Source: Thermodesulfobacteriota bacterium (GTDB lineage: Bacteria > Desulfobacterota > Desulfarculia > JACQYL01). Taken from it: 64,000 bases of DNA. The stretch is taken from NCBI GenBank assembly GCA_963675595.2, contig CAXXLZ010000002.1, positions 1,120,001 through 1,184,000 on the forward strand. Direction: 5' to 3'. Positions 8,119 through 38,197 of the stretch are shown piece by piece; the first letter of the stretch is position 1, and each line of letters begins with the position of its first letter. Under the pieces are notes generated by a model. That model did no database searches. It was not told where the DNA came from and saw only the letters and a list, made by a program, of their open reading frames with translations. Both the position numbers and the translations under genes were made by a program.

Positions 8119-9249
8119 TCAGCTGCATTCGAAAATATGAACCAGTTCGTTCACCGCCATGGTGGGCGACATTTCCCCTTCCAGAACGGCACTCTCAACA
8201 GTGTGCTTATTTTTCTTGATCCCCGCATGATTAAAGAAGCTGGACTTCAAATACTCCTGTACCATGCTGTAGACCCATTCCAGCAGTTGCGATCTCCGTC
8301 GTGCGTCGAACCGGCCGGACTGCATGGTGACCTTTCGGAATTCCTCAATAACCGACCAGATTTCCGCGATACCCACTCCCGTCAATGCCGAACAGGTATA
8401 GGCCTCGGTCCTCCATCCCTCGGTGGCCGGTTGCAGGTAGGGTAGAATACGGGAATATTCCAAGCGGGCGGTTTCCGCCCTGATCTTATTGTCACCGTCC
8501 GCTTTGTTCACCAGGATGGCGTCGGTCAACTCCATGATCCCCTTCTTCAAACCCTGCAACTCGTCTCCGGCTCCCGCGATCACAATCAGCAGGAAGAAAT
8601 CCACCATGGATCGGACCGTGGTCTCACTCTGTCCCACCCCCACGGTTTCCACCAGGACCACGTCGTAACCGGCGGCTTCGCAAACCAATACCGTCTCACG
8701 GCTCTTTCTGGCCACACCCCCTAGCACGCCGCCGGACGGTGAAGGTCGGATGAACGCATTGGGATGTCTGGAAAGCTTCTCCATGCGGGTCTTGTCCCCC
8801 AGGATGCTCCCTCGGGTCACGGTGCTGCTGGGGTCCACGGCCAGTACCGCCACTCTGTGGTCCTGATCGCACAAATGCGTCCCCAAGGCCTCGATGAAAG
8901 TGCTTTTCCCAGCGCCGGGAAAACCGGTGATTCCCACACGCATGGATCTGCCCGTCTCGGGGAGGAGGGCTTTCAGCATCTCCTGCGCTTGTTCCATATA
9001 AGCCGGAGAATTGCTTTCAACCAAGGTAATGGCCCTGCCCAGGACGGTTCGATTTCCTTCAAGCACTCCGTTCACATAATCATCTACGGACAGTTTCTTC
9101 CGCCGAGGGCCGGACGCGGGTTTAACCGGCCGGCACACTTTGGACGTCATACCGTCGTGACCGCCCATGACTCCGGCCATGACATGCGTGGTGAACTCTT
9201 CCCCGGCGTTCCCGGGTGTCCATTCAGGTCGCTTCTTGTTATCGGTCAT
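8119..9249 (-). CDS. meaB: Methylmalonyl-CoA mutase-associated GTPase MeaB (ArgK family)
   Basis: GITGFPGAGKST, LAVDPSS, GSILGDKTRM, ETVGVGQSE and NKAD motifs. Lies downstream of the mutase genes. Confidence 0.95.
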   Translation of the reverse strand: MTDNKKRPEWTPGNAGEEFTTHVMAGVMGGHDGMTSKVCRPVKPASGPRRKKLSVDDYVNGVLEGNRTVLGRAITLVESNSPAYMEQAQEMLKALLPETGRSMRVGITGFPGAGKSTFIEALGTHLCDQDHRVAVLAVDPSSTVTRGSILGDKTRMEKLSRHPNAFIRPSPSGGVLGGVARKSRETVLVCEAAGYDVVLVETVGVGQSETTVRSMVDFFLLIVIAGAGDELQGLKKGIMELTDAILVNKADGDNKIRAETARLEYSRILPYLQPATEGWRTEAYTCSALTGVGIAEIWSVIEEFRKVTMQSGRFDARRRSQLLEWVYSMVQEYLKSSFFNHAGIKKNKHTVESAVLEGEMSPTMAVNELVHIFECS

Positions 9250-15861: not shown

Positions 15862-17163
15862 TTACTCTTCTTCCATCTCTTCAAGCTCGACGCCCAGCCG
15901 CTCCCACTGCTCGTCCCGAGCCTTTCGGCCGACCTCGATCTCTTGTTCGCTCCAGGGCTCTATCTCCAAGGCTTCTGAAACCAGCTCCCACAAGTACATG
16001 ACTTCGCACCCGAGGCTGTATTCCTTATCCAGGCTTTTCATGAGCTGGTCTCGGCAATTATGACACGGGGCGATGACCATGTGAGCCCCCGTTTCCTTGA
16101 TCTGTTCCGCCTTCTTCCGACCGTAAAAAATTCTCTCCTCGGAATAAGGCATGGCCCATGCGCCGCCTCCGGCGCCGCAACAAAGGTTGTTCTGTCGGTT
16201 GGTGGTGGTGTCCACGAAATCCGGACAACATTGCTGCAGAATCCACCGAGGTTCCTCGTAATAGCCGTGCCCGAAGGCTTTTTCGGACTTACGTCCGTAG
16301 TTGCACGGATCGTGATAGGTCACCCGTTCCGTGAAGAACTCAGGGTTTACTTTGATACGGCCTGTTTCAAGGTAATGTTTCATCAGATCGTGGACGGACC
16401 ATATCTTGAAATTCTTCATCTCTTCCTTAAACCACTTATTGAGACCTAACCTGGTCGCATAGTAGGCGTGGCCTCATTCGGGTAAAAGGAGGTTGGGGAT
16501 TTTGTAGCGCTGCATGTGCTCCACGATGCGGCCCACGATGGTTTTCATGGACTCGTCGTCGCCGGAGAACAGTCCCCAGTTCACGCCCTCCCAGTTCTCG
16601 CTCGTGGTCGTCCAATCTTCTTTGGCGGCATAGAATATCTTCCACCAAAATTTCATATCGTCGGGTTCGCCGAACGGTTCTTTGGAATTGATGGTTACCA
16701 ATATATTGGCGTTTTCCTTATCCACCGGAACGTAGAATCCCGGACAACATTCATCTTCCATTTCCTGGCCCATCTCGGCCAGCAGGAAGAGAAAGTCGTC
16801 TCTCGGAATACCAAGATTGTTCCCGCGCTCGATGCACATCATGGTACCTTTGTGGATGGGCCCCGGTACCTTGTCCCGTTCCCGCATGCCGCGGGCGGTG
16901 CGCATCATGGCCACAATTTCCACTCCGGCGGGGCAGGCGTACTCGCAACGGCCACAGAGAGTGCACACCCAGGGGAATCGGGAATCCACCAGTTCCTGAT
17001 CCAGACCGAGCGCCGCCATGCGCACCGCCTTTCTGGGGTCCATCCCGTCCACGCCGGTTACCGGGCAGCCGCTGGCGCAGGTCCCGCAGGTAAGGCACAC
17101 ATCGGCCCAAGCGGGATTCACCCTAAGCTTGCCCTTTTCTCGGCTTAGCGTAATTGCTTCCAT
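15862..17163 (-). CDS. Selenocysteine-containing CCG-domain Fe-S oxidoreductase (HdrD/GlpC/HmcF-like), 433 aa, Sec230
   Basis: Track ORFs 16474-17241 and 15862-16419 are in one frame, joined by TGA 16474-16476: LLLPE-U-GHAYY. The paralog at 1-1070 has VTECGHAFR. CxxCxxCxxxCP twice, HDPCN and CCGAGGG. Confidence 0.88.
16443..16456 (-). promoter_or_regulatory. SECIS-like hairpin
   Basis: GACC-AGGTTA-GGTC, 18-31 nt after the UGA. TGAGGCC can alternatively pair with GGTCTCA. Confidence 0.6.
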
Positions 17164-17394
17164 ACAAAATTTCTCCTCCATCATTTGTTGTGAACCAAAC
17201 CACAACTCCCGGCGATCCGAATCGGCGCCACGCAGGCGCAAACGACGGCGTTCTCCAAGAGTGCTTGCCGATCCTATTTTCTTCCAACATCAATGGTCTC
17301 TTCCGCAAAGAGCCCCACGCCCACTCCGGAGGCTTTCCTCACGGTCGATCCCCTCTCTTCCCCTCGTCGGTTCTCCTGCGGTGAATCCCCGAGT

Positions 17395-18771
17395 TCAGAA
17401 AACCACCCGCAAATTATACCGCTTAATCTTGTGTCCCAACGTTTTCCTGTTAATCCCCAAAATTCTCGCCGCCTCCTGCCGCTTTCCCTTGGTGTTTCTC
17501 AGTACAAACTGAATGTAGCGCTTTTCAAGTTCCTCCAGGGTATATTCGCCGTCGGAAAATACCTGAAACTCACCCTGTCGTTGGGTGATAAAACTCGGAA
17601 GATGCTCCGGTTGGATCGTATCCGTGTCCTCCAAGATCAAGATCCTCTCGATGGTATGCTCCAATTCCCGAACGTTACCCGGCCACGGATAGTCGCTCAA
17701 CAGCTTCATCGCCCGGCTCGACACTCCCTTGACCTGCCTGTCGCTCTTCAGATTGTGCTTTTCGATGAAATGGTTGACCAACAAGGGGATGTCGCCCGTA
17801 CGCTCTCTCAAAGGCGGAAGGTGAATGGGAACGACGCTCAGTCGATAGTACAGGTCTTCCCGAAACGTTCCCGCTTTGATGGCTTCCTTCAGGTCTCGGT
17901 TGCAGGAAGCGATAATCCTGATATCCAGCCGAATTCGCTTCTGGCTGCCGACCTTCATGAACTCCCGCTCTTGAATCACCCGCAGGAGTTTGGCCTGGAT
18001 GTTCAGGCTGAGATTGGTGATTTCGTCAAACAAAAAGGTGCCATGGTTCGCCAACTCGAATAGCCCATGCTTGGTCTGATGCGCTCCGGTGAAGGAGCCC
18101 TTCACATGCCCGAACAGCTCGCTTTCCAGCAGGGACTCCACCAAGGCGGAGCAATCCACGGGCACAAATTCATGATCCCGACGAGAACTCAATCGATGAA
18201 CCGCTCGAGCCGCAAGCTCCTTGCCGGTTCCGCTTTCCCCGGTGAGAAGCACCGTGCTGTCACTGGGCGCCGCTCTCCGTATTTTCGCGAAAACCCTCTT
18301 CATGGCGGGGCTTTCTCCGACCAGGGAATCGATCCCCTCCCCGCCGTCGGAATCGCTGTCCTGGACTGAAACAACAGCCGACTCGTTTTCGAGACTTTCC
18401 CGGGCCTTGCGCACAACCGACTCGAGTTCATCCAGGCGAAACGGTTTCACCAGGTAGTCCAGAGCCCCGTGCTTAACGCATTCCACGGCGCCCTCGATCG
18501 AGGGATGCCCGGTAATGATGATCACTGCGGTGTGGGGATACTCATTGCGTATGACCTTCAAGACGGCCATCCCGTCCATTTCGGGCATTCTGATATCCAA
18601 GAGCACGATCCCGAACGGCTCTTCGGACATCCTCTCCAGGGCCTCCGGACCGCTCTCCGCGGATTCCACGCGGTAGCCTTGTGAAACAAGTACCCTCGTG
18701 ATTCCCGTGCGGACCACGGGTTCATCGTCCACCACGAGGACCCGGTCTTTTAAGTCAAGCCTCTCCGACAA
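17395..18771 (-). CDS. Sigma54-dependent response regulator (NtrC family: REC-AAA+-HTH)
   Basis: VLVVDDE, LDIRMP, GESGTGKE, ELFGHVKGSFTGA, WPGNVRELE and a Fis-type HTH. Start uncertain (TTG 18771 chosen). Confidence 0.92.
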   Translation of the reverse strand: MSERLDLKDRVLVVDDEPVVRTGITRVLVSQGYRVESAESGPEALERMSEEPFGIVLLDIRMPEMDGMAVLKVIRNEYPHTAVIIITGHPSIEGAVECVKHGALDYLVKPFRLDELESVVRKARESLENESAVVSVQDSDSDGGEGIDSLVGESPAMKRVFAKIRRAAPSDSTVLLTGESGTGKELAARAVHRLSSRRDHEFVPVDCSALVESLLESELFGHVKGSFTGAHQTKHGLFELANHGTFLFDEITNLSLNIQAKLLRVIQEREFMKVGSQKRIRLDIRIIASCNRDLKEAIKAGTFREDLYYRLSVVPIHLPPLRERTGDIPLLVNHFIEKHNLKSDRQVKGVSSRAMKLLSDYPWPGNVRELEHTIERILILEDTDTIQPEHLPSFITQRQGEFQVFSDGEYTLEELEKRYIQFVLRNTKGKRQEAARILGINRKTLGHKIKRYNLRVVF

Positions 18772-20260
18772 GGCAGTCCTCTGTTTCCGGCACCACGGGG
18801 AGAAGAACCTTGAAAGTGGTCCCGGCACCTTTCCGGCTCTCCACCTCGATCGACCCTTGATGGGCCTCCACAATGCCCTTGACAATGGCGAGCCCCAGCC
18901 CGGACCCGATCACCTGACGCGTACTCGGATCTTTAACTCGATAGAACTTATCGAAAATCTTAGGAATCTCGGTTTCTTCAATACCGATCCCCGTGTCGCT
19001 CACCCGAATCTCCACGTAATTCCCATGAGGAATGATCTCTGCACGAACCTCCCCACCGTCGGGAGAATAGTTGATCGCGTTCGTGAGTAAATTGGTAAAT
19101 AGTTCCTCCATTCCTCTTCGATCGGCGCGGATCACTGTTGGAGCGGTAGGCTGTTCCAGTACCAGACGTATTCTCAGGCTCGTCGCCCTCGCATCCAATA
19201 GGCCCGTGACTTCGGCAATCACTTCATGCAGGTTGAGAGGCACCTGCTCCATGCGGCCATGACCCGCTTCGATTTTGGAGACGTCCAATAGATCGTTAAT
19301 CAATTCAATCAGCCCATCGATCTTGTCGTGGGCGCGCTCTATAAGATGACGTTGTTTTTCGGTCAATTCTCCGGCCAAACCATCCAATATGACTTTATGC
19401 TGCAATTTGATCGCCGTCAACGGTGATCTGAGCTCGTGTGAAACCATGTGCACGAAGTCGTTCTTCATCTCCTCAACTTCTTTAAAACTCGAAATGTCGT
19501 GAAAGACGGTGACCGTCCCCAGGACATGCTCATCCGGTCCGAAAAACGGAGCAGACAACGCCCTAAGCTGGGTTTTTCCTCTTGTAAGTTCTTGGGCGAT
19601 GCGACGGTCCGGGTCTTCACCGGCGTCTTGCAGCAGGCTCTCGATCGACTCTCTCAGAGCCGCATCGTCAAAGTAGTTCGACAAAGGTCCGGGCAGCGAA
19701 GCAGGATTGGACAAACCCAGATGCTGAGACAAGGCGGGATTGTACAACACCACTTCCATGTCCCGATTGGTGACCAGAACACCGTCGCCCATGCAATTAA
19801 TGATGGTTCTAAGCCGGCTTTGCTCCAAGGCCAGGGAATAAAGGTTCCGGGCCTGCTCCTCCTGAAGATCCCGGGCCTGCCGCTCCAGCACCTGCTTATC
19901 GAGGGCCCTGCGTACCACCAGAACCAGATGGTCGATGCGAAAAGGCTTGGTCACAAAATCATAGGCCCCTTGCTTCATGCACTCTACGGCATCAGCAACG
20001 GTTCCGTGACCGGTAATAATGATCACAGGCACATCGGGGTACCTCGTGCCCGTGATCTCAAGCACCTCCAGAGCACCCATGACCGGCATTTTCAGATCAC
20101 ACAAAACCACGTTCACCGGTTCCGTCTCCAACAAATCGAGTGCTTCCCGACCGTTGGCCGCCGTGGTCACCCTGAACCCTTCCGGCTCCAGGAATCGGAT
20201 ACACCCATCGCGGATCACTTTCTCGTCATCGACCACGAGCACGGTGTAGTTTTCATCCAT
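18755..20260 (-). CDS. REC-PAS-histidine kinase
   Basis: N-terminal receiver, then PAS, H-box SHELRSPL, NLLTNAINY, DTGIGI and GSGLGL. Confidence 0.92.
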   Translation of the reverse strand: MDENYTVLVVDDEKVIRDGCIRFLEPEGFRVTTAANGREALDLLETEPVNVVLCDLKMPVMGALEVLEITGTRYPDVPVIIITGHGTVADAVECMKQGAYDFVTKPFRIDHLVLVVRRALDKQVLERQARDLQEEQARNLYSLALEQSRLRTIINCMGDGVLVTNRDMEVVLYNPALSQHLGLSNPASLPGPLSNYFDDAALRESIESLLQDAGEDPDRRIAQELTRGKTQLRALSAPFFGPDEHVLGTVTVFHDISSFKEVEEMKNDFVHMVSHELRSPLTAIKLQHKVILDGLAGELTEKQRHLIERAHDKIDGLIELINDLLDVSKIEAGHGRMEQVPLNLHEVIAEVTGLLDARATSLRIRLVLEQPTAPTVIRADRRGMEELFTNLLTNAINYSPDGGEVRAEIIPHGNYVEIRVSDTGIGIEETEIPKIFDKFYRVKDPSTRQVIGSGLGLAIVKGIVEAHQGSIEVESRKGAGTTFKVLLPVVPETEDCLVGEA

Positions 20261-24375: not shown

Positions 24376-25305
24376 TTATGCGCTCGGCCGAGGATAAAGA
24401 CCGGCCCGCTCCACAATCTCGGGTACCTTCTCCTCCCATTCAATGGCCATAATGTGAAAGCCTCGAACTCCCTCCACGTCCTTCAGTTCTTCAATCTGTT
24501 CGATGGCCAACTTGATTCCTTCTTCCGGTTGGTTTTCTTTGGGTACGCCTCCCATCCGTTTAACCACTTCGTCGGGCACGTCCATACCAGGCACGCGTTT
24601 CTGCATGTAACGGGCCATGCCCACACTTTTCATCGGAGTGATTCCGGCCAGAATGGACACCTTTTCGTGCAGTCCCCAATCCCTGACCATTCCCATCCAT
24701 GTCTTGAACTTCTCCATATTGTAAATACACTGGGTTTGAATGAACTGAACCCCGGCATTGACTTTCTTGGCCAAACGGGCCACCCGGATTTCAAAGGGGT
24801 CCGCAAAAGGGTTGGCCGCCGCCCCGATGAACATCTTGGGGCGCACGGGCAATTCGAAGCCGCTGAGCAGCTTTCCATCGTCCCGCATCATCTTTACGGT
24901 CTGTATCAACTGTGTGGAATCCAGATCGTACACGTTCGCCGCATTGGGATGGTCTCCGAAATGCGGATGATCGCCCGTCAGACAAAGCATCGTGTTAATC
25001 CCGCAGGACGCGGCGCCCAACAAATCGCTCTGCAGCGCAATCCGATTTCGGTCCCGCGTAACCATCTGAAGGATCGGCTCGTAGCCGAGCTGTTTGATCC
25101 GGACGCAGGACACCAGGCTGCACAGGCGCACCACCGACGTCTGGTTGTCGGTCACATTGATCATATCCACGTAGTCGCCGATCAACTTGGCTTTTTCGTC
25201 GATGATCCGCCCGTCGCAACTCCGCGGGGGACCGCACTCCGACGTAACCGCGAAATGACCTCCCGCCAACACTTTTTCCAGCTTGCTGTCCGTAGTCATA
25301 CTCAT
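24376..25305 (-). CDS. metF: Methylenetetrahydrofolate reductase MetF
   Basis: TSECGPP, NVTDNQ, RDRNRIALQSDL, LTGDHP and FIQTQ. Its ATG overlaps the metV stop (ATGA). Confidence 0.92.
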   Translation of the reverse strand: MSMTTDSKLEKVLAGGHFAVTSECGPPRSCDGRIIDEKAKLIGDYVDMINVTDNQTSVVRLCSLVSCVRIKQLGYEPILQMVTRDRNRIALQSDLLGAASCGINTMLCLTGDHPHFGDHPNAANVYDLDSTQLIQTVKMMRDDGKLLSGFELPVRPKMFIGAAANPFADPFEIRVARLAKKVNAGVQFIQTQCIYNMEKFKTWMGMVRDWGLHEKVSILAGITPMKSVGMARYMQKRVPGMDVPDEVVKRMGGVPKENQPEEGIKLAIEQIEELKDVEGVRGFHIMAIEWEEKVPEIVERAGLYPRPSA

Positions 25306-25970
25306 ACCCGTATATCCTCTCTGACGATCTTTCGAGGTCCGCCGTCGCGGCTGGTGCTCCAATCCTTGGGAGAAACGGGCTGCTGGAAGCGTTCCAACTG
25401 TCCCAAGGTCTTCAGCCGCTCGTAGATCAGGTGCCACCCGCAGTCGATCTCCGAATTGACCTCGCACTTTCCCTTGGATGATCCGCCGCACGGGCCGTTC
25501 AACATGCGCTTCGAACACCGGGCGATGGGGCAAATCCCTCCCGTCTCTGCCAGGATGCATTTGCCGCAGGCTTGGCACCGTTCGGCATAAAGCCCCCGCT
25601 CCAGGTTCACGCCCATGAAGCACGTATCGACACCCGGATAGACGATCTTTTCCGGGAATCGTTCCGCCAGATGCTGACAACCCACGCCGCAGGCAAGGGA
25701 TATCATGGCGTCATATTGGTCCGCTCTGTCCGCTAAAGGGTCCAAGTATTCCCGCTCGCATTGCCGGGTGCACGTCGTCTCGTCGATCTGCATTTTCTTT
25801 CCGGCCTGGGTGAAGTACAACCTCAACGCCGCGGCAAGCACGTTGACTTCCTTGAGGCCGCCCGCCTCGCAAACGGTCACGCACCCGTCACATCCCGCGA
25901 TGAGGAGCGTTTCGTAATCCTTCACCAACTCTATAATTTCCTCGATCGGTTTTCCTATCGCCTTGATCAT
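25302..25970 (-). CDS. metV: MetV (MTHFR C-terminal-like Zn/Fe-S subunit)
   Basis: GCDGCVTVC, LACGVG and CQACGKC..GGICPIARCSKRMLNGPCGG. Immediately upstream of metF. Confidence 0.9.
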   Translation of the reverse strand: MIKAIGKPIEEIIELVKDYETLLIAGCDGCVTVCEAGGLKEVNVLAAALRLYFTQAGKKMQIDETTCTRQCEREYLDPLADRADQYDAMISLACGVGCQHLAERFPEKIVYPGVDTCFMGVNLERGLYAERCQACGKCILAETGGICPIARCSKRMLNGPCGGSSKGKCEVNSEIDCGWHLIYERLKTLGQLERFQQPVSPKDWSTSRDGGPRKIVREDIRV

Positions 25971-26419
25971 GCGGCTTCCTCCCCAATATGGCTCTCCCGG
26001 CGCCCTTCGGTCAAATTGATGGGGCTCGGGCCCAGTTCCTTGATCCGAGTCCCCATTTCCCTTGCGATCTCGGCGAACCTCCCTCCCATCCCGGCGGAGA
26101 GGTTGTACATCTCGATCCGTTCCCCGCCGATTTTCACCTTGTCCAGGATCTGCTTCACATAGTTGACTCGTTTTCTGGCGCGCAGGTTCCCTTTCAAGTA
26201 ATGGCAGTCACCCTCCAGACAACCGGCCACAAACACGCCGTCCGCTCCTTCCTCGAATGCGCTCAACATATGCGTAATGTCCACCCTGCCCGTGCAGGGG
26301 ACTTTGATGATCTTGATGTTCGCGGGATATTGAAGTCTCATCGAACCTGCCAGGTCCGCAGCCGAGTACGCTCAATAGCTGCAGCAAAACGCCAGTATTT
26401 TCGGCTCAAAATCTTCCAT
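25967..26419 (-). CDS. mvhD: MvhD-like [2Fe-2S] subunit, selenoprotein (Sec16), 150 aa
   Basis: MEDFEPKILAFCCSY-U-AYSAADLAGSMRLQYP with TGA at 26372-26374 where the paralog has CNWCAY. PCTGRV and GCLEGDCHY. GGAG RBS. Confidence 0.92.
26342..26358 (-). promoter_or_regulatory. SECIS-like hairpin
   Basis: CGGACCT-GGC-AGGTTCG, 14-30 nt after the UGA. Confidence 0.65.
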
Positions 26420-26430
26420 GTTCGGACTCC

Positions 26431-29400
26431 TTAAGAAAATGCGCTGATACCGGCCCTGATCTGCCCGTCCTCATAGTGGGCCAGTTGGATGACTTTGGCG
26501 GGGCACTCCGACGCACATACCCCGCACCCCTGACACAAGGCCTCATTGATTTCCGAAACGTTGTCCTCGTTGATCTTCGGAACCCCGAAGGGACAACTTC
26601 GCACACACACCAAGCAGGCGGCGCAGCGGCTCGTGTCCACTTTGGCCACCACCCCGCTGATCGTCTGGTGGGTATCCGCCAAAAACGCGCCGGCTCTTGC
26701 CGATGCCGCCAACGCCTGCGCGATGGTTTCGCTGATCAACTTGGGACTATGAGCCGTACCGCACAGGAAGACTCCTTCGGAACTGAAGTCCACGGGCCGA
26801 AGTTTGGCGTGCGCTTCAATGAAGAATCCGTAGGCGTTGCGCGGGACCTTCAGCAGGGTCGCGAGTTCCTCGGTGTCGGACGCCAACGTGGCCGCGCTCA
26901 GAACCACCGCGTCCACCGCCATTTTGATGGGACGGTTCAGAACGTGGTCTATGAACGTCACGCTCAGCTCGCCGTCGGCGTTCTCAACCACGGGCTCCTT
27001 GTCCAGGCTGAAACGGCTGAACAGCACGCCCTTTTTCCGGGCTTCCCGATAATAGTCCTCCAGCAAACCGTAAGTTCGCATGTCGCGATAGAGGATCACG
27101 ACCTCCGTTTCCGGATTCATCTCCTTGAGCTGCAACGCGTGCTTCACCGCGCCCTGGCAACAGATGCGGCTGCAGTTGGGATTCTCCTCGTTTCTGGAGC
27201 CCACGCACTGAATCATGACCACACGCTTCCAGTTCGACGTGGTTCCCGGTTCTTCGTGCATCCGATCGCCCAGTTCAAGCTGGGTCATGACCCCTTCGTG
27301 TTCTCCGTAGAGGAACTCCTTGGGTTTGTACTCGAAAGCCCCGGTGGCCACGATGGCCGCCCCGTGGTTGATCTTCCTCTCGTACATACCCGGGCCCACC
27401 AACACCTCCGTGGTGAAGTTGCCCTTGTATCCGCTGAATCCCACGATCAAAGCCTCGATCAGCACCTGAATCTTTTCATGGGACCGGACCCTTTCAATGA
27501 GTTCGTCCAGGTAGCGGTTCACGTCCAGACCGTCGATGGTGTGATACAGCCGTCGAGCCATGCCGCCCAGAGCCTTTTCCTTCTCGATGACGACGGCTTC
27601 GAATCCCTGCTGAGCCAGATTGAGGGCGGCGTTGAGTCCCGCGATACCGCCGCCGACCACCAGGGCTCTCTGGTTGATTTCCAGGGGTTTTTCCACCAGG
27701 GGATTGAGCAGACCGGCCCGCGCCACGGCCATGCGAACCAGATCCTTCGCCTTCTCGGTGGCCCGGCGGGATTCCTTCATATGCACCCAGGAATCCTGAT
27801 TACGAATGTTGGCCATATCGAACAAATACTTGTTCAGACCGGCATCAATGAGGGTTTCCCGAAACAACGGCTCATGGGTCAAGGGTGTACAGGCCGCCAC
27901 CACCACTCGGTTGATGTCGTTTTCCCGGATGACTTTGGCCATTTTCACCTGAGTGTCCTGGGAGCAAGTGTACAGGTTATCCTCGACGTGGACCACGTTG
28001 GGCAGGGATCGCGCATATTCCCGCACTTCGGGCACGTTGACGATGCCCCCGATATTGATCCCGCAATTGCAGACGAACACGCCCACCCGCGGCGGTCCTT
28101 CCATGACCTCCTTACGTTCGGGCGGCGTCACCTTCACCTCGGTCCGCGTCCAACGAACATCACCCAAAACCGCGCTGCAGGCCGCCGCTCCGGCGGAAGC
28201 CTCCATAACCGACTGTGGAATATCCTTAGGCCCCTGGAAAGTCCCACATACGTAGATTCCGGGGCGGGACGTGCTGACCGGAGACGAGGGCAGCGTTTTG
28301 GCAAAATGGTGCGTATTCAATTCGATGCCAAGCCGGTCCGCCAATTCAGTCGCGCCTTTGCTCACCTCAAAACCCGTGGACAGCACCACCATATCGAACT
28401 CTTCCCGCCTGGGCTCTCCGTTTTCGTCCACGTAACTGATGGCGAGTTCCGCCTCGCCCGTCGGGTCGATGCTGTGCACCCGACAGCGAATAAAGCGGAC
28501 TCCGTGCTCGTTTCTCGCCCGATTGTAGTACTGCTCGAATTCCTTTCCGTAGGTCCGCATATCCATATAGAAGATCGCGGTATCCAGGTCTCCGTGCGCA
28601 TGCTCCTTGGCGATGACCGCTTCCTTGATGGCATACATGCAGCACACGGCCGAGCAGTAGGAATGGTCGCAACGGTTCATATCTCTCGAACCCACGCATT
28701 GCAGCCAGGCGATCTTTTTGGGCTCGTCCCGATCGTAGGGCCGCATGAGGTGTCCCTTGTACGGACCGGAGGCACTCAAAATGCGCTCAAACTCGAGACT
28801 GGTGACCACATTGGGCAGCCGCGTGTATTTGTAGGTCTCGAATCGGCTCGGATCGAACACTTCGTTGCCTAAAGTCAGCAGCACCGCACCCACTTCCACT
28901 TCCCGTTCCACTCGAGTCTGCTCATACTCCACGGCCCGGGCCAGGCAAACCTTTTCGCAGAGCCCGCAGCCGATGCAGGCGTCCTTGTCGATGGAATAAG
29001 CCAGCGGAACCGCTTGAGGGTATTTGATATAGGAGGCTTCTCGCCGGTCCAGCCCACGGTTGAAAAAGTTTACCGCGCTTACCGGACATGCCTTCTTGCA
29101 GTCGCCGCAAGCCGTGCATTTCACCGGATCGATGTATCGCGGACGGCTCTCGAGGACCGCCTTGAAGTTCCCTACGTCGCCTTCCAGGGACTTGACTTCC
29201 GTGTTCGTGAGCACGTCGATGTTCAGGTGACGGCCCACTTCCACCAGCTTCGGGGATATGATGCACATGGCGCAGTCGTTGGTCGGAAAAGTCTTGTCCA
29301 ACTGTGACATGACCCCGCCGATGGAGGGAGAGCTTTCCGCCAGGTAAACGCGATAGCCCGAGTTGGCCAGATCCAGGGAAGCCTGCATCCCGGCGACCCC

Positions 29401-29454
29401 CGCGCCCACGACCAATACCGAGCCGATCCTTCCGTTATTGCTTTCATTCGCCAT
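26431..29454 (-). CDS. hdrA: Heterodisulfide reductase subunit A-like flavo-Fe-S protein (internally duplicated, 1007 aa)
   Basis: Two GxGxxG FAD motifs, DKTFPTNDCAMC, two CVGSR..CSxxCC motifs and ferredoxin-type CxxCxxCxxxC domains. Confidence 0.93.
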   Translation of the reverse strand: MANESNNGRIGSVLVVGAGVAGMQASLDLANSGYRVYLAESSPSIGGVMSQLDKTFPTNDCAMCIISPKLVEVGRHLNIDVLTNTEVKSLEGDVGNFKAVLESRPRYIDPVKCTACGDCKKACPVSAVNFFNRGLDRREASYIKYPQAVPLAYSIDKDACIGCGLCEKVCLARAVEYEQTRVEREVEVGAVLLTLGNEVFDPSRFETYKYTRLPNVVTSLEFERILSASGPYKGHLMRPYDRDEPKKIAWLQCVGSRDMNRCDHSYCSAVCCMYAIKEAVIAKEHAHGDLDTAIFYMDMRTYGKEFEQYYNRARNEHGVRFIRCRVHSIDPTGEAELAISYVDENGEPRREEFDMVVLSTGFEVSKGATELADRLGIELNTHHFAKTLPSSPVSTSRPGIYVCGTFQGPKDIPQSVMEASAGAAACSAVLGDVRWTRTEVKVTPPERKEVMEGPPRVGVFVCNCGINIGGIVNVPEVREYARSLPNVVHVEDNLYTCSQDTQVKMAKVIRENDINRVVVAACTPLTHEPLFRETLIDAGLNKYLFDMANIRNQDSWVHMKESRRATEKAKDLVRMAVARAGLLNPLVEKPLEINQRALVVGGGIAGLNAALNLAQQGFEAVVIEKEKALGGMARRLYHTIDGLDVNRYLDELIERVRSHEKIQVLIEALIVGFSGYKGNFTTEVLVGPGMYERKINHGAAIVATGAFEYKPKEFLYGEHEGVMTQLELGDRMHEEPGTTSNWKRVVMIQCVGSRNEENPNCSRICCQGAVKHALQLKEMNPETEVVILYRDMRTYGLLEDYYREARKKGVLFSRFSLDKEPVVENADGELSVTFIDHVLNRPIKMAVDAVVLSAATLASDTEELATLLKVPRNAYGFFIEAHAKLRPVDFSSEGVFLCGTAHSPKLISETIAQALAASARAGAFLADTHQTISGVVAKVDTSRCAACLVCVRSCPFGVPKINEDNVSEINEALCQGCGVCASECPAKVIQLAHYEDGQIRAGISAFS

Positions 29455-29536: not shown

Positions 29537-30292
29537 TTAGGCGGTCAGCATGAATCTGGGACTGTGCCCGTCGTAGCTTTTAAGGTCCGCCAGCCCGGTT
29601 CTTTCCAGATCGTTCAGCCGAAGCGACACGCAATAGATCGGCAATCCCGTTTCGGCGGACATTTCACGAACCGTTTTCGGGCCCTTGGCCAGAACCTCGT
29701 AAATGAGGGCCCTCTGGTACTCCTCCTCCGCACAGGCCTTGAAAAACTCCGCGTATCGGGATGGATCGATCCGCTCATGATAAACGTTATCGCGCTCGGT
29801 GACGTGTCGACCCGTTCCCGTGAGCCACCGCAGTTTGGGAGCGGTCAATGCGCGTTCCAGCGCGGGCAGTGCCACGGGGTACGCATCCGGATCAAAGGGT
29901 CCCAGGTCCCGGATCACTCCGGTCAGTTCGGTGATGAAATCGGCGAAAATTTGACCTTCGGCGGCACTGACCCATCGGAGTTGCACCCGGTCTTTTCCGA
30001 TGCCCGAAAAATCCAGTAGGTGGGTAACGAGGCTAATCCTGCGCTGCGCATATACATTACCTTCCAGGTAATGGCAGTCCCCGATGTGTCACCCGAAGAC
30101 GAAAACCCCGTCGAATCCGCTTTTCAATCCTTCCATAATGTGGAGCGGGTCAACCCGCCCGGAACACATGGTGCGGATCACCCGGATGCTTGGTGGATAC
30201 TGAAACCGGGAAACGCCGGCCAGGTCCGCGCCCGCATAAGCGCACCAGTTGCACAAAAAAGCCAGAATCTTAGGTTCGAAGAGCTCGCTCAT
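29537..30292 (-). CDS. MvhD-like selenoprotein (Sec68) with C-terminal winged-HTH-like extension, 251 aa
   Basis: Track ORFs 30089-30292 and 29537-29986 are in one frame across TGA 30089-30091: FVFG-U-HIGDCHYLEGN (canonical GC..GDCHY). C-terminus LIYEVLAKGPKTVREMSAETGLPIYCVSLRLNDLERTGL. Confidence 0.88.
30055..30073 (-). promoter_or_regulatory. SECIS-like hairpin
   Basis: Perfect 8-bp stem CATTACCT-GGA-AGGTAATG, 16-34 nt after the UGA. Confidence 0.75.
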
Positions 30293-30303
30293 GATATCTC
30301 CCT

Positions 30304-33300
30304 TTAAGCCTCCTGCACGGCATTGCGGCCGCCGCCGGCATGAATGGCGGCGGAGATCTGACTGTCACGGAAGCCGATCATGTCTATGGCCCTTTGAGGA
30401 CAGGCCGCGGAACAGATTCCACATCCCTTGCACGAGGCGGAGATGTTCTCCGCCCGAAAACCCTTGCCCTGCACCGCGATCAGGTGAATGGCGCTGAACG
30501 GGCAGGAAGCCTCGCACAGCCCGCACCCGATACACAGCTCCTGGTTCACGGAAGACACCAGGGGATCCACCTCGATCTCCCCACGGCTCAACACTTCCGC
30601 CGCACGGGAAGCCGCTGCTTGGGCCTGCGCGATGGACTCCTCAACGGGCTTGGGATAATGGGCCAGACCGGCCACGAATACACCGTCCGTGGCAAAATCC
30701 ACGGGACGGAGTTTCATATGGGCTTCCAGAAAGAAGCCGTCCCCATTCAGCGGCACTTTGAACATCTGAGCCAGACCCTGCACGTCTCTGGGGACAATGG
30801 CGGAAGCCAAATTCAGGAAATCCACCGGCAGGGTGACTTCCCTTCCCAACACATGGTCCTTCACCGTAATTTCGAGCTTGGGTTTCCCCTGTCCGCTCGC
30901 AACCTTCACCTTGGGTTTGTTTTCCAGGTCGAACCGCAGGAACAAGACTCCCAGCTCCCTGGCCTTGCGATACAGCTCCTCCCGTTCTCCAAAGGTGCGC
31001 AAGTCCCGATACAGCACAAACACCCTCAAATCGGGCTTGCGCGTTTTGAGATCGATGGCTTGTTGCACCGAAGCGGTACAGCAAATCTTTGAACAATAGG
31101 GCCGTTGGGGCTCCCTGGACCCGACACATTGAATAAAGGCAACGGCTTCGGCCTCGTTCAACAGGGCCGGATCGGCGGCGAGTCGCTCTTCCAGCTCATG
31201 TCCTCGGGTCACCAGATCGCTTTGCCCGTAAAGGTATTCATCCGGCACGAAGGACTCGGCGCCGGTGGCCAGCACGGCCACGCCGTGTTCGATTTCCCGG
31301 TCTTGGCCTCCGCTCTCGAGCACCGTCTTGAAGTTCCCAACAAACCCGGCGACATGGCTTATTCGGGTTCCGGTGAACACTTCGATCTTGTCATGCCCGT
31401 GAATCTTGGCCTTCAGGTCCTCCATGTAGCTTTGCACATCCTCGCCTTTCCAGGTCTTCTTGAGCTTGAGGGCATGCCCCCCCAGCTCGCTTCCCTGTTC
31501 CACGAGGTAGGTATGAATGCCTTGGGTGGCCAGATTCAGTGCCGTGTTCATGCCCGCAACGCCGCCTCCCACCACCAGAGCGTTTTGACTCAATCCCACG
31601 GTCATCCGGCCCACCGGCTCTAGAAGCGCCGCCTTGGCAACGGCCATGCGCACCAAGTCTTTGGCCTTTTCCGTGGCCTTTTCCGGCTCGTTTTGGTGAA
31701 CCCAGGAATCCTGATCCCGGATGTTGGCCAATTCGAATAGATGGGGATTGAGGCCCGCCTCCTTCAGAGTTTCCTGAAAGAGCGGCTCATGGGTCCTCGG
31801 CGTGCATGCGGCCACCACCACCCGATTGAGCTTATGCTCATGAATCGCTTCACGGATCAGGGCTTGGGTGTCTTGGCTGCACGTGAACATGGTGTTGGAA
31901 GCGTAGGCCACGTGAGCGAGGTTCTTGGCGTAATCACGAACTTCCTCGGGGTTGATCACGCTGGCGATGTTGATCCCGCAGTGGCATACGAATACACCGA
32001 TACGGGGTTCTTCTCCGGCCACGGAAGCTTCTATGGGATAGGTCTTCTCCTTGATCAAAGTGTTCCGCGCGGATCCCAGCAGAGCGGCGGAAGCGGCCGA
32101 AGCGGCCGAAGCTTCCATGACGGAGTATGGAATATCCTTGGGGCCGGAGAATGCTCCGCAGACGAAAATCCCGGGACGTGAAGAAGCCACGGGGGAGAAA
32201 CAGCTCCCCTCGGCGAACCCGTCCGCCGTCAACGCCACCCCCAACCGCTCGGCCAAGTCGCGAACCTCACGGGGAATCTCGAGCCCCACGGAAAGAACCA
32301 CCATGTCGAAGACTTCGGCAATCACTTCGCCTTCTTCGGTCACATATTCCAGTTTGAGCTCTCCCGCGCCCCCGGGAACTTCCTCAATGCTGTGCACCCG
32401 ATTCCGGATGAACCGGACCCCGGACTCTTTTTCGGCCCGAACGTAGTAACGTTCAAACTCCTTGCCGTACGTACGCATGTCCATGAAGAAGACGGCCGTG
32501 TCCAGGTCCTCCCCCGCGTGTTCTTTCGCAATGACCGCCTCTTTGATGGCGTACATGCAACACACCCCGGAGCAATAGCCGTGTCCCATCTGCACGTCAC
32601 GGGAGCCGATGCATTGCAGCCAAGCGATCTTTTTCGGTTTGGCCTTGTCGGACGGCCTCACCAAATGTCCTTCGTATGGGCCCGAGGCACTGAGAATCCG
32701 CTCAAATTCGGGACTGGTCACCACATTGGGAAAACGACCATACCCGTATCGATGGTAGGGAGTGGGATCGAAGGCTTTGAAACCCGGCGAGAGGATCACG
32801 GAACCCACGTTGATGTGGTGTTCTTTAGGCTCCTGGCTGAAATCCACGGCCCCGGCGGGACAAAATTTCTCGCAGGCCCGGCACTTGCCCTTTTTGAAAT
32901 AGATGCAGTGGTCCGGATCGATGGCGTACTTCAGGGGAACGGCCTGGGGATACTCGACATACGCCGCCTTGCGCTGACTCAGGCCCTGATTGAAGGTGTC
33001 CTCCACCTTCTTGGGGCATTTCTCGGCGCAGATTCCACAGGCGATGCACTTCTCCATATTCACGTACCGGGGCTTTTCCGCCACCGTGACCGTGAAGTCT
33101 CCCGCCTCTCCCTCGATGGATCGAACATCCGCCATGGTCATCAGTTGGATGTTCAGATGTCGCCCGGCTTCAACCAGCTTGGGCGAAAGAATGCACATGG
33201 AACAGTCATTGGTGGGGAACGTCTTGTCCAACTGGGCCATCACGCCCCCGATGGCGGACGATTTTTCCACCAAGTACACGTAGTATCCTGAATTGGCCAA

Positions 33301-33411
33301 ATCCAGCGCCGCTTGGATCCCGGCGACCCCGCCTCCCACCACCATGACGGAGCCCACGGGGGTTTTTCCCGCACCGCCGTTCCCGCTGCCTGGGGATTGT
33401 CCGTTTGTCAT
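30304..33411 (-). CDS. hdrA: Heterodisulfide reductase subunit A-like flavo-Fe-S protein (internally duplicated, 1035 aa)
   Basis: Paralog of 26431-29454: VVGGGVAG twice, DKTFPTNDCSMC, CIGSR/CVGSR and terminal 2x4Fe-4S motifs. Confidence 0.93.
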   Translation of the reverse strand: MTNGQSPGSGNGGAGKTPVGSVMVVGGGVAGIQAALDLANSGYYVYLVEKSSAIGGVMAQLDKTFPTNDCSMCILSPKLVEAGRHLNIQLMTMADVRSIEGEAGDFTVTVAEKPRYVNMEKCIACGICAEKCPKKVEDTFNQGLSQRKAAYVEYPQAVPLKYAIDPDHCIYFKKGKCRACEKFCPAGAVDFSQEPKEHHINVGSVILSPGFKAFDPTPYHRYGYGRFPNVVTSPEFERILSASGPYEGHLVRPSDKAKPKKIAWLQCIGSRDVQMGHGYCSGVCCMYAIKEAVIAKEHAGEDLDTAVFFMDMRTYGKEFERYYVRAEKESGVRFIRNRVHSIEEVPGGAGELKLEYVTEEGEVIAEVFDMVVLSVGLEIPREVRDLAERLGVALTADGFAEGSCFSPVASSRPGIFVCGAFSGPKDIPYSVMEASAASAASAALLGSARNTLIKEKTYPIEASVAGEEPRIGVFVCHCGINIASVINPEEVRDYAKNLAHVAYASNTMFTCSQDTQALIREAIHEHKLNRVVVAACTPRTHEPLFQETLKEAGLNPHLFELANIRDQDSWVHQNEPEKATEKAKDLVRMAVAKAALLEPVGRMTVGLSQNALVVGGGVAGMNTALNLATQGIHTYLVEQGSELGGHALKLKKTWKGEDVQSYMEDLKAKIHGHDKIEVFTGTRISHVAGFVGNFKTVLESGGQDREIEHGVAVLATGAESFVPDEYLYGQSDLVTRGHELEERLAADPALLNEAEAVAFIQCVGSREPQRPYCSKICCTASVQQAIDLKTRKPDLRVFVLYRDLRTFGEREELYRKARELGVLFLRFDLENKPKVKVASGQGKPKLEITVKDHVLGREVTLPVDFLNLASAIVPRDVQGLAQMFKVPLNGDGFFLEAHMKLRPVDFATDGVFVAGLAHYPKPVEESIAQAQAAASRAAEVLSRGEIEVDPLVSSVNQELCIGCGLCEASCPFSAIHLIAVQGKGFRAENISASCKGCGICSAACPQRAIDMIGFRDSQISAAIHAGGGRNAVQEA

Positions 33412-33466: not shown

Positions 33467-34342
33467 TCATATGCCCGCCGCCGCCAGGACCGAAGGTAAT
33501 TTCTCCTCCCACCCGATGGTGGAAATCAGGACTCCCGCGGCTCCTTCCTCTTTGAAGGCTCGAATCAATTCGCCCGATATATGAATGCACTCCCGGGTTC
33601 TCTCCGGAGACTTCTGGATTCGGCCGATGATCTCTTCAGGGACACTTACGTGAGGCAGGTTGCGGTCGATGTATCGAGCCATTCCGACGGACTTGAGCAG
33701 GAGCACCGTGGGGAATATTTTCCCCTTGCGACCTTCCATCTTTTTCATCAGTCCACTCAATACCGATGGATCGAACACCGGTGGGGTTACGAAGAATTCC
33801 GCCCCGAGCTCGGCCTTCTTGTCGAGATTTTCCAGCTCAAGGTCCAACGCTCCCCCGCTCAAGCCCGCGTTCATTGTTGAACCCACCAGAAATCGTGGAG
33901 TTCCCTGGAGGTCCACGCCCCCCAAGTCTCGGCCCGAAGCCAGGGTCCCGATGGAGGAAAGCAGCTCGAACAAATCCAGGTCGTTCACCGGACGGGCCTT
34001 GGGATGATCTCCGTAGCTTGGATCCTCCCCGGTCACCGCCATGATATTGGTCACCCCCAAAGCGGCTCCGGCCAGCAGGTCCGCTTGAAGAGCCAGACGG
34101 TTCCGATCCCGGCAACAGACCTGCATCACCGTCTCGAATCCCCTGCTCTGGAGTAACACCGAACCGCCCAGAGAGCTCATGCGCATGACCGCATTGCTCA
34201 TCTCCGGCACCACGAAGGCGTCCACCTTCCGTTTCACTCCGGCTGCGTGCGCCGCCATCAACGATCCATCGGCGCCTTTGGGCGGTTCCATTTCCGCGAG
34301 AACGGCGAACTCCCCGGCGTTCAGTCTCTTTTGTAACTGCAT
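33467..34342 (-). CDS. Second, divergent MetF-family protein
   Basis: AEMEPPKG, CRDRNRLALQADLL and GDHP. Has TGED where the other MetF has TGDH. Confidence 0.85.
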   Translation of the reverse strand: MQLQKRLNAGEFAVLAEMEPPKGADGSLMAAHAAGVKRKVDAFVVPEMSNAVMRMSSLGGSVLLQSRGFETVMQVCCRDRNRLALQADLLAGAALGVTNIMAVTGEDPSYGDHPKARPVNDLDLFELLSSIGTLASGRDLGGVDLQGTPRFLVGSTMNAGLSGGALDLELENLDKKAELGAEFFVTPPVFDPSVLSGLMKKMEGRKGKIFPTVLLLKSVGMARYIDRNLPHVSVPEEIIGRIQKSPERTRECIHISGELIRAFKEEGAAGVLISTIGWEEKLPSVLAAAGI

Positions 34343-34810: not shown

Positions 34811-34826
34811 TGCAACTACCGTGCCC
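34811..34826 (-). promoter_or_regulatory. sigma54 promoter of the hdr/mvh/met cluster
   Basis: GGGCAC-GGTAG-TTGCA, with an IHF-like AATCAGTAGGTTA just upstream. 17-bp boxes at 34904-34920 and 34974-34990. Confidence 0.75.
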
Positions 34827-36265: not shown

Positions 36266-38197
36266 ATGACCACCCGGAAGCCCCCATCTGCGTGTGCAAA
36301 CGCACCGCCTGAAACCGACCCCCAAACCTCCGATCTCAGTCGGCCGGCGGAACCTCGTTTCGAAGCCGACGCGACTTCCGAGCCCCGGGAATCCGATCTC
36401 CTTCAAACCAGGGAAGCCCTCCGCCGTCGATCGCATGAACTGGGGGAACGGATCAAAGAGCTCAACTGCCTTTACGGCATCTACCGACTGGTGGAACAAC
36501 CGGACTTGTCCCTGGAGGAGATTTTTGAGGGCGTGGTCCGCTTGATCCCCCCTTCATGGCAATACCCCCACATCACACAGGCCTGCATCGAATACCTCGG
36601 AAACGATTACCGCACACCCGAGTTCCGGCCCACCGTCTGGATACAGAGTTCTCCCGTGGTTGCCGGCGGCGTACCCGTCGGCACGGTCTCGGTATGCTAC
36701 GCTCAGGAATGTCCTTCCAGCGATGAAGGACCGTTCCTCAAGAAAGAGAGGAACCTGCTTGATGCCGTCGCTCGCCATCTGGGAACCATCATCGAGCGCA
36801 AACAAGCAGAGGAGGCTCTCGAAGAATCCATGGACCTTTACCGAACTCTGGCCGAACACGTGGCCGACGGGGTGACTCTGGTACAGGACGGACGCTTCCT
36901 TTTCGCCAACGTGGCTTTCGCGGCCATGTTGGGCTGCTCCGGGCCGGCGGGACTGGTGGGCGGAAAAGTGGAGGAGATTTTCGCGGGGGAGCGCTTTGAA
37001 GGGATTCGCGACAAGTATCGCAATCCGGAAAAGACCGAGGAGGCGCGACCCGTATTCCGGGTGCGTTTCGAAACTCGCGAGGTCGGGGAATGCTGGATGG
37101 AAGGATATCATCATTTCCTCACCTGGAAAGGTCGTCCCGCTCTGCTCACCACCTTGCGCGACATTACCGAGAGACGGGTTCGCGAAATGGCGATCCGAGA
37201 AGAAGCCGAGCAACTTCGCAGGGAAAACCTCCGGCTCCGTTCATCGATTCGGGAACGCTACCGTTTCGGCCACTTGGTGGGTAAAAGCACGGCCATGCAG
37301 GAAGTCTACAGACTCGTGCTCAAGGCCTCGGAAACGGACGTGCCTGTGGTGATTTCCGGAGAGTCCGGTACGGGGAAGGAACTCATCGCGCGAACCGTTC
37401 ACGAAATGAGCACGAGAAGCGACAAGCCTTTTGTGGCCGTCAACTGTGGGGCGGTCCCGGAAACCCTGTTCGAAAGTGAATTTTTCGGTCACCGGAAAGG
37501 GGCATTCACCGGAGCCTACGCCCACAAACGCGGTTTCTTCGACTCGGCGCACGGCGGCAGTCTGTTCTTGGACGAAATCAGCGAACTGACGCCCAACATG
37601 CAGGCCAAGCTGTTGAGAGCCCTCGAAGGCTCCGGATACATCCCCGTTGGAGGCGACCGCGTGCGTCGAGCGGACGTGCGTATTCTGGCGGCGACCAACG
37701 TGCCCCTTCGGGAACGCGTCCGCAAGGGTTTGATGCGCGAGGATTTCTTCTATCGTCTCAATGTGGTGTCCATACCGGCCCCGCCCTTAAGGGAAAGAAA
37801 GGAAGACATCCCTTTGTTGGTGGAACACTTCCTCAAGACCTCGGCCAAGAACGGCCCGCCGCGTACCATTCCTTTGAACGTGATGGACGCCCTGCTGAAT
37901 TACCCCTGGCCGGGAAACGTGAGAGAGTTGCAGAACGTGGTTCAACGCTACGTCACGTTGAATCGATTGGACTTTTTGGACTCGGCGGGTGGAGATATGC
38001 TTGGAGAAGAGGACCTCCACGGTGATCTCGAGGAAGACGGACAATGGAGTCTTCGGGAGGCAATGAGCCGATACGAAAGAAAACTCATTTCCGCCGCGTT
38101 GTCCCGCACGCGATGGCGTCGAGGCAAGGCTGCGGCCCTGTTGGGCGTGGACCGGAAGACGCTGTTCCGCAAGATGAAGGAGCTGGGGCTCGGATAG
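36266..38197 (+). CDS. Sigma54-dependent enhancer-binding protein with sensory (GAF-like/PAS) domains
   Basis: ERIKELNCLY N-terminal domain, PAS, GESGTGKE, GAFTGA, WPGNVRELQN and a Fis HTH. Confidence 0.93.
   Translation: MTTRKPPSACANAPPETDPQTSDLSRPAEPRFEADATSEPRESDLLQTREALRRRSHELGERIKELNCLYGIYRLVEQPDLSLEEIFEGVVRLIPPSWQYPHITQACIEYLGNDYRTPEFRPTVWIQSSPVVAGGVPVGTVSVCYAQECPSSDEGPFLKKERNLLDAVARHLGTIIERKQAEEALEESMDLYRTLAEHVADGVTLVQDGRFLFANVAFAAMLGCSGPAGLVGGKVEEIFAGERFEGIRDKYRNPEKTEEARPVFRVRFETREVGECWMEGYHHFLTWKGRPALLTTLRDITERRVREMAIREEAEQLRRENLRLRSSIRERYRFGHLVGKSTAMQEVYRLVLKASETDVPVVISGESGTGKELIARTVHEMSTRSDKPFVAVNCGAVPETLFESEFFGHRKGAFTGAYAHKRGFFDSAHGGSLFLDEISELTPNMQAKLLRALEGSGYIPVGGDRVRRADVRILAATNVPLRERVRKGLMREDFFYRLNVVSIPAPPLRERKEDIPLLVEHFLKTSAKNGPPRTIPLNVMDALLNYPWPGNVRELQNVVQRYVTLNRLDFLDSAGGDMLGEEDLHGDLEEDGQWSLREAMSRYERKLISAALSRTRWRRGKAAALLGVDRKTLFRKMKELGLG

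Follow-up and report, generated by a model that had tools for sequence, protein, structure and literature searches.

Does an electron-transfer subunit that ends in a winged helix-turn-helix (wHTH) read DNA, or does it help to hold an enzyme together? The question is raised by one gene in a 64,000-nucleotide stretch of a Thermodesulfobacteriota bacterium genome (contig CAXXLZ010000002.1, positions 1,120,001 to 1,184,000), the whole of which we call the window. The gene, on the minus strand at 29537..30292, encodes a 251-residue selenoprotein that we term the long MvhD. It consists of an MvhD adaptor domain followed by a winged-helix tail. An earlier note on this DNA proposed that the protein is a redox-sensing DNA-binding regulator exploiting Fe-S and selenium chemistry, with a structural adaptor as the fallback. 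Our analysis favors the fallback. Specifically, we put at about 0.8 the probability that the long MvhD is an adaptor of the type of BamF, a subunit of class II benzoyl-CoA reductase, and that its winged-helix tail is a docking piece rather than a gene regulator.

The long MvhD gene starts at an ATG (30290-30292) that lies 11 nucleotides beyond the stop codon of an upstream gene for a 1035-residue HdrA-like protein. A Shine-Dalgarno-like stretch, AAGGGAG, is located 6 nucleotides upstream of this ATG, and the gene ends at a TAA (29537-29539). Under the standard code, the frame is split into open reading frames (ORFs) of 67 and 149 residues. Translation of the TGA at 30089-30091 as selenocysteine (Sec, or U) joins the two and places U68 in the sequence FGUHIGDCHY. 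The translation, the start and stop, and the C-terminal sequence quoted in the earlier note all agree with the 251-residue readthrough product that the note had put forward. The note had also described a complete MvhD with a C-terminal extension ending in a wHTH, and a second MvhD in the window, of 150 residues, that lacks the tail. Both statements hold: the first is borne out by the Pfam, AlphaFold2, and Foldseek results given below, with an extension of about 118 residues, and the second protein is encoded at 25967-26419 on the minus strand. The protein was therefore described accurately, and the question concerns what it does.

The N-terminal part of the long MvhD belongs to the MvhD/FlpD family. 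Pfam PF02662 matches residues 9-131 (29900..30268, minus strand; E 4.6e-50, 169.2 bits against a cut-off of 22.3), NCBIfam models match as the MvhD part of HdrA2 and as VhuD, and solved MvhD chains in the PDB align with residues 5-133 (E 1e-42 to 1.4e-45). Structure comparison with Foldseek pairs the N-terminal half with 5odh_D (E 2.6e-12; template modeling (TM) score 0.84 on the target), and C14, C17, C43, U68, and C73 align with cysteines of 5odc_D. Thus, a hidden Markov model (HMM) score above the cut-off, the cysteine pattern, the fold, and an adjoining HdrA gene all mark the protein as a family member. The domain shows the Cys/Sec pattern and the fold of [2Fe-2S] MvhD adaptors, and cluster binding is predicted.

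The tail has two parts. A helical linker (residues 134-189; 29726..29893, minus strand) carries conserved LRWL and NVY motifs (alignments A1 and A3), and the wHTH proper (residues 190-251; 29540..29725, minus strand) consists of a VSLRLNDLER helix and a beta-hairpin wing. The motifs LRWL, NVY, EY, and VSLRLNDLER are invariant across the family alignments, and in the wing, G242 and F247 are likewise invariant within the subfamily. AlphaFold2 models the whole protein with a predicted local distance difference test score (pLDDT) of 83.9 and a predicted TM score (pTM) of 0.83; for the tail alone, modeled from 55 sequences, the values are 94.3 and 0.85. In the tail model, three helices (tail residues 8-16, 19-33, and 44-68) lead into the helix-turn-helix, and a beta-hairpin wing at tail residues 111-116 of 118 closes the model and ends the protein, with no ArsR-type dimerization helix after the wing.

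Among known structures, the best Foldseek matches of the tail are the ArsR/SmtB proteins CzrA and SmtB (E 2.7e-3 to 4e-3), SqrR and MarR are also among the best, and compact winged helices such as Z-alpha align with a TM score of 0.88 on the target and a root-mean-square deviation of 1.7. A profile of the tail retrieves generic wHTH proteins only from the PDB (E 1.4e-4). Family models respond to the single protein below their thresholds: NCBIfam ArsR/SmtB matches residues 181-235 weakly (17.4 bits against a cut-off of 55), and Pfam TrmB, HTH_5, and MarR_2 match the tail at E 0.07-0.13, with HTH_5 reaching 12.8 bits against a cut-off of 22. Across 24 family members at E<=1, MarR_2 matches 24/24 (best 1.5e-6), and HTH_24 and HTH_5 each match 23/24. 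No Pfam family covers the tail, and none of the six distinct solved MvhD sequences matched, which are 129-141 residues long, possesses one. Because AlphaFold2, Foldseek, the PDB profile search, and the Pfam family matches agree, we regard the modeled wHTH fold as real and confirmed. The resemblance of the C-terminal part to an ArsR/MarR-type wHTH, as the earlier note perceived it, is likewise upheld by the tail model and its Foldseek matches.

A concrete precedent for such a tail comes from a 2026 preprint on the class II benzoyl-CoA reductase BamBCDEFGHI of Geobacter metallireducens (bioRxiv 10.64898/2026.04.10.717634). According to that preprint, BamF is an MvhD-homologous adaptor that is more than 100 residues longer than other MvhD adaptors and contains Sec19, cryo-electron microscopy shows its wHTH interfacing with BamI, and BamE is a fused HdrA dimer. 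In a full-text literature search on MvhD and helix-turn-helix, a winged-helix tail on MvhD was mentioned nowhere beyond this preprint.

We searched the tail profile against 401 genomes of the phylum and then fetched the gene contexts of the matches. One locus, L137, has the canonical bamBCDEFGHI-type gene order: an AOR-type protein of 683 residues, a 182-residue protein, a CCG/Fer4 protein of 404 residues, a double HdrA of 1044 residues, an MvhD of 254 residues, NuoE-like and NuoF-like proteins, and a Fer2_4/Fer4 protein. The L137 MvhD is our BamF-type reference, and it is an orthologue defined by synteny, not the G. metallireducens sequence itself. BLASTP aligns the long MvhD with this reference over residues 5-250 (36% identity, E 8e-49), and hhalign matches the tail profile to the reference tail with a probability of 97.2 (E 2.9e-11, 107 columns). 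Because the alignment runs end to end and the tail profiles match, the window protein is assigned to the same long-MvhD family as the BamF-type proteins. It has the features that distinguish them: an extension of more than 100 residues with a winged helix, a tail homologous to that of a bam-cluster MvhD, and a fused-dimer HdrA encoded immediately before it.

How widespread is the family? Queried with residues 132-251, a set of 142 candidates yielded 24 proteins with the tail. Three are 252-253 residues long and have Cys68, twenty, of 160-173 residues, are gene calls with a start beyond the UGA, and one is the window's own 149-residue call; in their sources, they are annotated as "hypothetical protein" or under names for a hydrogenase delta subunit. 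A library of 1.84 billion proteins contains 397 cluster representatives that the tail profile matches at E<=0.001, of which 154 also pass E<=1e-10, and the lengths of these representatives fit known tail architectures, save for a few multi-wHTH repeat proteins. Within its own genome, the tail is single-copy: there is no tail-bearing paralogue (the second match has E 0.4), and none of the other 9 MvhD matches has a winged-helix tail.

Another MvhD protein of the genome is elaborated differently. This protein, in the frame containing position ~1500 of locus L008 (G000:C2:1252841-1256230), has Sec in CHWU and a distinct C-terminal extension that ends in a 2x[4Fe-4S] ferredoxin-like cysteine pattern. 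Thus, MvhD C-termini in this genome come in at least three kinds: none, ferredoxin, and winged helix. Elsewhere, distant long-MvhD paralogues (L022:4327-5088, L061:4151-4912, and L063:3088-3861) share 23-25% identity over the full length. Their CNWC motif is degenerate (CGWGG), their second motif reads GCTPTHSCHY, and each is preceded by a half-length HdrA and sits immediately ahead of the main HdrA-MvhD-HdrA block. They may be cluster-less structural copies.

The company that the tail keeps is consistent across genomes. Our set of 60 related loci, drawn from contigs of public genomes, comes mainly from assemblies of Syntrophobacteraceae, Desulfobaccales, and Desulfobacterales, together with a Desulforhabdus isolate; it contains 58 long-MvhD copies. 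Among copies with enough flanking sequence, a double HdrA ends within 400 nucleotides upstream in 39/52, a double HdrA starts within 400 nucleotides downstream in 43/54, and both are present in 35/48; MetV lies within 5.2 kb downstream in 17/39. Copies without a flanking HdrA belong to a second arrangement, represented by L032, in which a GltD-like protein, a double HdrA, a short MvhD, a Fer4 protein, and an HdrD-like protein precede the long MvhD.

The tail also occurs in other architectures. It forms the C-terminus of 810-837-residue HdrA-MvhD fusions behind NuoF-like and Fer2_4 proteins (L113, L115), it follows a half-HdrA in a NuoEF-Fer2_4 cluster (L105), and it adjoins a ~1480-residue HdrA with a GltD/NfnB-like insert (L104, L109, L112). 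Finally, in L116 (7961-8338, minus strand; Pfam HTH_20 6e-9) and L117 (around 8047-8340, minus strand; profile match only), the tail is a free-standing 126-residue gene between HdrB and a ~1480-residue HdrA (1478 residues). Farther along, both of these operons encode MetF-type proteins, to which L116 adds a tail-less MvhD and MetV. The earlier note had held that a separate gene for the downstream part would speak against its proposal; such a gene, of about 126 residues, is found in some lineages, and the full-length fusion in others. In every one of the 18 loci annotated (84 of 202 ORFs scanned), Hdr-type redox genes surround the tail, and L032 is likewise.

We note that the double HdrA on the upstream side contains, in many of the orthologous loci, a ~470-residue GltD/NfnB-like NAD(P)H-type insert (Fer4_20 plus Pyr_redox_2) that brings it to ~1480-1500 residues. 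These loci include L020, L021, L026, L029, L035, L040, and L044-L046, as well as L104, L109, L112, L116, and L117. The enlarged HdrA resembles HdrL of Desulfobacterium autotrophicum; the 1035-residue HdrA of the window has no insert.

Is the TGA truly read as selenocysteine? The codon (30089..30091, minus strand) occupies the first cysteine position of the motif GC(H)xGDCHY, at which orthologues have either TGA or Cys. The earlier note suggested looking for homologues with C or U at position 68 and the same extension, and both kinds exist. Of the 54 homologues of full length, 33 have TGA at codon 68 and 21 have Cys; once 4 distant paralogues that do not have the motif are set aside, the 50 close orthologues divide into 33 with TGA and 17 with Cys (TGC or TGT), and conservation extends on both sides of the codon.

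Beginning 18 nucleotides past the U of the UGA, the transcript contains a hairpin, CAUUACC-UGGAA-GGUAAUG (30055..30073, minus strand), that resembles a selenocysteine insertion sequence (SECIS). Its consensus across orthologues is CAUUACC-(U/A)GGNN-GGUAAUG, built from His-Tyr and Gly-Asn codons. All 7 bp of the stem are preserved in 31/33 Sec orthologues, with 6 of the 7 pairs kept in the remaining two, and in just 2/17 Cys orthologues, where different synonymous codons specify identical residues; because the sequences share ancestry, the counts do not represent independent events. Because the stem is kept in Sec genes but not in Cys genes, the pattern is the signature of a putative bacterial SECIS under selection. 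Folded whole, the 81 nucleotides after the UGA include the local hairpin and are unremarkable (z -1.05; 36/200 shuffles fold equally well), so the weight rests on the local hairpin and on codon-level conservation. At Rfam gathering thresholds, no SECIS family was matched, and the sole match was a cobalamin riboswitch (RF00174, 89 bits) at 53428-53607 of the window on the minus strand.

The genome encodes tRNA-Sec (77 bits, cut-off 47) and SelB (404 bits, cut-off 242), and of its 10 MvhD-like matches, 5 have one in-frame TGA. Decoding of codon 68 as Sec, as predicted from these sequences, is well supported. The earlier note's corollary, that synthesis of the wHTH would require available selenium, applies to whatever is encoded after a Sec codon, and 17/50 orthologues have Cys at this position. 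Sec in MvhD is already known and is not new: in VhuD, two positions separated by about 50 codons are reported to hold Sec (PMC4989117), and four Sec-MvhD paralogues have been reported from D. autotrophicum (PMC2702500). The two VhuD positions match U68 of the long MvhD and U16 of the neighboring short MvhD; by this alignment, two known Sec positions are split between neighboring paralogues of the window.

What, then, surrounds the long MvhD? Directly upstream lies the gene for the 1035-residue protein (30304..33411, minus strand), a fused-dimer HdrA of BamE-like layout with two FAD/Pyr_redox regions and ferredoxin domains, which NCBIfam HdrA2 matches in 3 stretches with 1005.6 bits. Directly downstream, domain matches identify a second fused-dimer HdrA of 1007 residues (26431..29454, minus strand). 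The short MvhD follows (25967..26419), with its U16 in CSYU (a CxxU motif; codon 26372-26374, minus strand), and after it come, by domain match, the Cys-rich MetV (DUF5981; 25302..25970, minus strand) and MetF, a methylene-tetrahydrofolate reductase (24376..25305, minus strand) whose start overlaps the MetV stop in the sequence ATGA. At the operon head is a second protein resembling methylene-tetrahydrofolate reductase (MTHFR), of 291 residues (33467..34342, minus strand), which is found upstream in 6/60 related loci.

A sigma-54-like -24/-12 site, GGGCACGGTAGTTGC, one mismatch from consensus, is located at 34812..34826 on the minus strand. It has the right orientation and stands at the head of the response-regulator/MTHFR/HdrA/MvhD operon; it is a consensus match only, and the consensus is not enriched in the window (43 matches against 54 expected by chance). 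Sigma-54 activator genes flank the operon at 36266..38197 (plus strand) and 17395..18885 (minus strand), and two histidine kinases and response regulators complete the set of regulators around it.

Among the ORFs annotated at 14.8-45 kb of the window, there are no BamB/BamC (tungsten AOR) genes and no NuoE/NuoF/Fer2_4 (BamGHI) genes. Because these are missing from that interval, we judge from gene content that the system is not a class II benzoyl-CoA reductase. MetV was considered as a BamI-like partner and rejected, having no similarity to the L137 Fer2_4 protein (BLASTP E 6.8). A complex prediction that combined the tail (alignment A3), the MTHFR-like protein, MetV, and MetF, run without controls, gave a score of 0.00 and a mark of 0.32 and counts neither way. 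Farther away, downstream of the regulator block, the window contains genes for an HdrC-like (Fer4_8, 255 residues) and an HdrB-like (CCG, 185 residues) protein at 15862-17241 on the minus strand; in orthologous loci, HdrC and HdrB lie directly upstream of the first HdrA.

How could the long MvhD function in this setting? The notion is that its MvhD domain would sit on the upstream double HdrA and relay single electrons between the ferredoxin-domain clusters and the flavin of that protein, while Sec68 could tune thiol/selenol or cluster chemistry. The winged-helix tail would act as a protein-protein clamp that fixes a neighboring module, an electron donor or acceptor, on the HdrA core, a role modeled on the BamF tail, which would hold BamI in class II benzoyl-CoA reductase. 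The resulting assembly could belong to the methyl branch of the Wood-Ljungdahl pathway, as a MetVF-linked complex that performs HdrA-type flavin-based electron bifurcation or confurcation. The clamped partner could be the unit formed by the second double HdrA, the short MvhD, and MetVF; the additional MTHFR-like protein; or HdrA itself.

Several points weigh against this proposal. Structurally, the tail comes closest to genuine DNA-binding repressors (ArsR/SmtB and MarR), and docking and DNA binding are inseparable by modeled fold alone. The interval annotated around the operon offers no BamI-like (Fer2_4) or NuoEF-like gene, so the BamF-BamI contact is not simply transferable here. The contact, which enters our argument by analogy, rests on a preprint structure, and the PDB copy that we searched does not include its coordinates. 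Moreover, 13/48 orthologous copies do not have a double HdrA on both sides. Electrostatics contribute little: the wHTH has a net charge of 0 in the long MvhD, and the family has a mean of -1.0 and an isoelectric point (pI) of 6.1, but four ArsR proteins of the same genome have net charges of +3, -1, +2, and +3, so the ranges overlap. Charge and pI were accordingly set aside as weak discriminators, given that one of the four genuine ArsR proteins is also at -1.

The main proposal of the earlier note is a transcription factor that senses redox state or selenium, in which the [2Fe-2S]/Sec domain would register electron pressure and the wHTH would bind an operator controlling the hdr/metF operon. 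The leading Foldseek matches to ArsR/SmtB, SqrR, and MarR, the weak ArsR-family HMM match over residues 181-235, and the nearly invariant "recognition helix" VSLRLNDLER are all features that a regulator could have. However, every regulator HMM stays below threshold for the long MvhD, and the model has no ArsR-type dimerization helix after the wing. The protein is homologous to BamF, whose wHTH is a protein interface according to the preprint. The tail is confined to Hdr-type operons in the annotated loci and is even fused to HdrA-MvhD in enzymes of 810-837 residues, and dedicated regulators and the sigma-54-like site at 34812-34826 already flank the operon. The near-neutral to acidic charge of the wHTH adds weak evidence in the same direction. 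On balance, the DNA-binding regulator is not supported, and we consider it very improbable; the tail is more likely a docking piece.

A related idea is that the subunit docks when assembled, while an unassembled pool of the Sec/[2Fe-2S] protein binds DNA or RNA, for instance, its own mRNA at the SECIS region, and thereby couples subunit synthesis and hdr-metF expression to selenium or redox state. The fold could accommodate nucleic acid, given that Z-alpha is among its closest compact matches (TM 0.88), but no positive evidence speaks for such moonlighting, and the context and charge arguments raised against a transcription factor apply equally. We regard it as exceedingly improbable. Alternatively, the tail could recruit no separate module and simply stabilize its own MvhD domain or extend the contact with HdrA. 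The whole-protein pTM of 0.83 implies a tail pose that is fixed relative to the MvhD domain in the model, and an HdrA-like protein is the only partner common to all contexts. Nonetheless, a free-standing tail gene beside a tail-less MvhD exists (L116, L117), and the BamF tail is reported to touch BamI, a separate subunit. This alternative, too, is unlikely. The structural adaptor that was the fallback of the earlier note is the reading that BamF-type homology and, by analogy, the reported BamF-BamI contact support.

Why does a docking tail matter? Methanogens, acetogens, sulfate reducers, and syntrophs rely for energy conservation on HdrA-type flavin-based electron bifurcation, and the donor or acceptor module that is wired to the HdrA core decides the role of the enzyme. 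The winged-helix tail of long MvhDs seems to recur as a connector of such modules. From its sequence and neighborhood, the window protein is classified as a new Sec-containing, BamF-type long MvhD that resides in a MetVF-linked double-HdrA operon and not in a benzoyl-CoA reductase. The presence of one connector family in both settings would carry the BamF principle over into the methyl branch of the Wood-Ljungdahl pathway, and the MetVF-linked operon suggests a large multi-HdrA assembly. At the UGA, gene callers interrupt most Sec-containing copies, so that fragments of 160-173 residues remain, some labeled "hypothetical protein," and the connector goes unrecognized in public annotation. We caution that fold matches alone are no ground for annotating long MvhDs as transcription factors.

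Comparison with known systems places the long MvhD among electron-transfer subunits. With ArsR/SmtB repressors, it shares the fold of its last ~60 residues; it differs from them in falling below the family thresholds, in having no C-terminal dimerization helix, and in being fused to a redox subunit. With MvhD/VhuD of the methanogenic HdrABC-MvhAGD and related complexes (PDB 5odc, 7bkb, and 8rvu), it shares the sequence and fold of the MvhD domain, whereas the solved chains have 129-141 residues and no tail, and the long MvhD has 251 residues and one.

Methylene-tetrahydrofolate reductase complexes of the MetFV-HdrABC-MvhD type reportedly operate in acetogens. Similar to these, and to the HdrL/HdrA-MvhD loci of D. 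autotrophicum, the window has HdrA and MvhD genes beside MetV and MetF; unlike them, it has a pair of fused-dimer HdrAs and, besides the short MvhD, a long one. For sulfate reducers, one report (PMC2702500) describes Sec-containing MvhD paralogues together with NAD(P)H-domain HdrA fusions (HdrL), and that description fits the ~1480-residue HdrA with the GltD-like insert of the orthologous loci.

The closest parallel remains BamF. According to the preprint, BamF, like the long MvhD, is a selenoprotein that combines an MvhD domain with an extension of more than 100 residues containing a wHTH and is encoded right after a fused-dimer HdrA. The two systems differ in their partners, with a second double HdrA, a short Sec-MvhD, and MetV-MetF in the window operon instead of BamB/C and BamGHI. 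They differ also in the placement of Sec, which is residue 19 of a CxxU motif in BamF and residue 68 in the long MvhD, where Cys17 occupies the BamF site. The BamF position is the one at which the neighboring short MvhD of the window has its own Sec.

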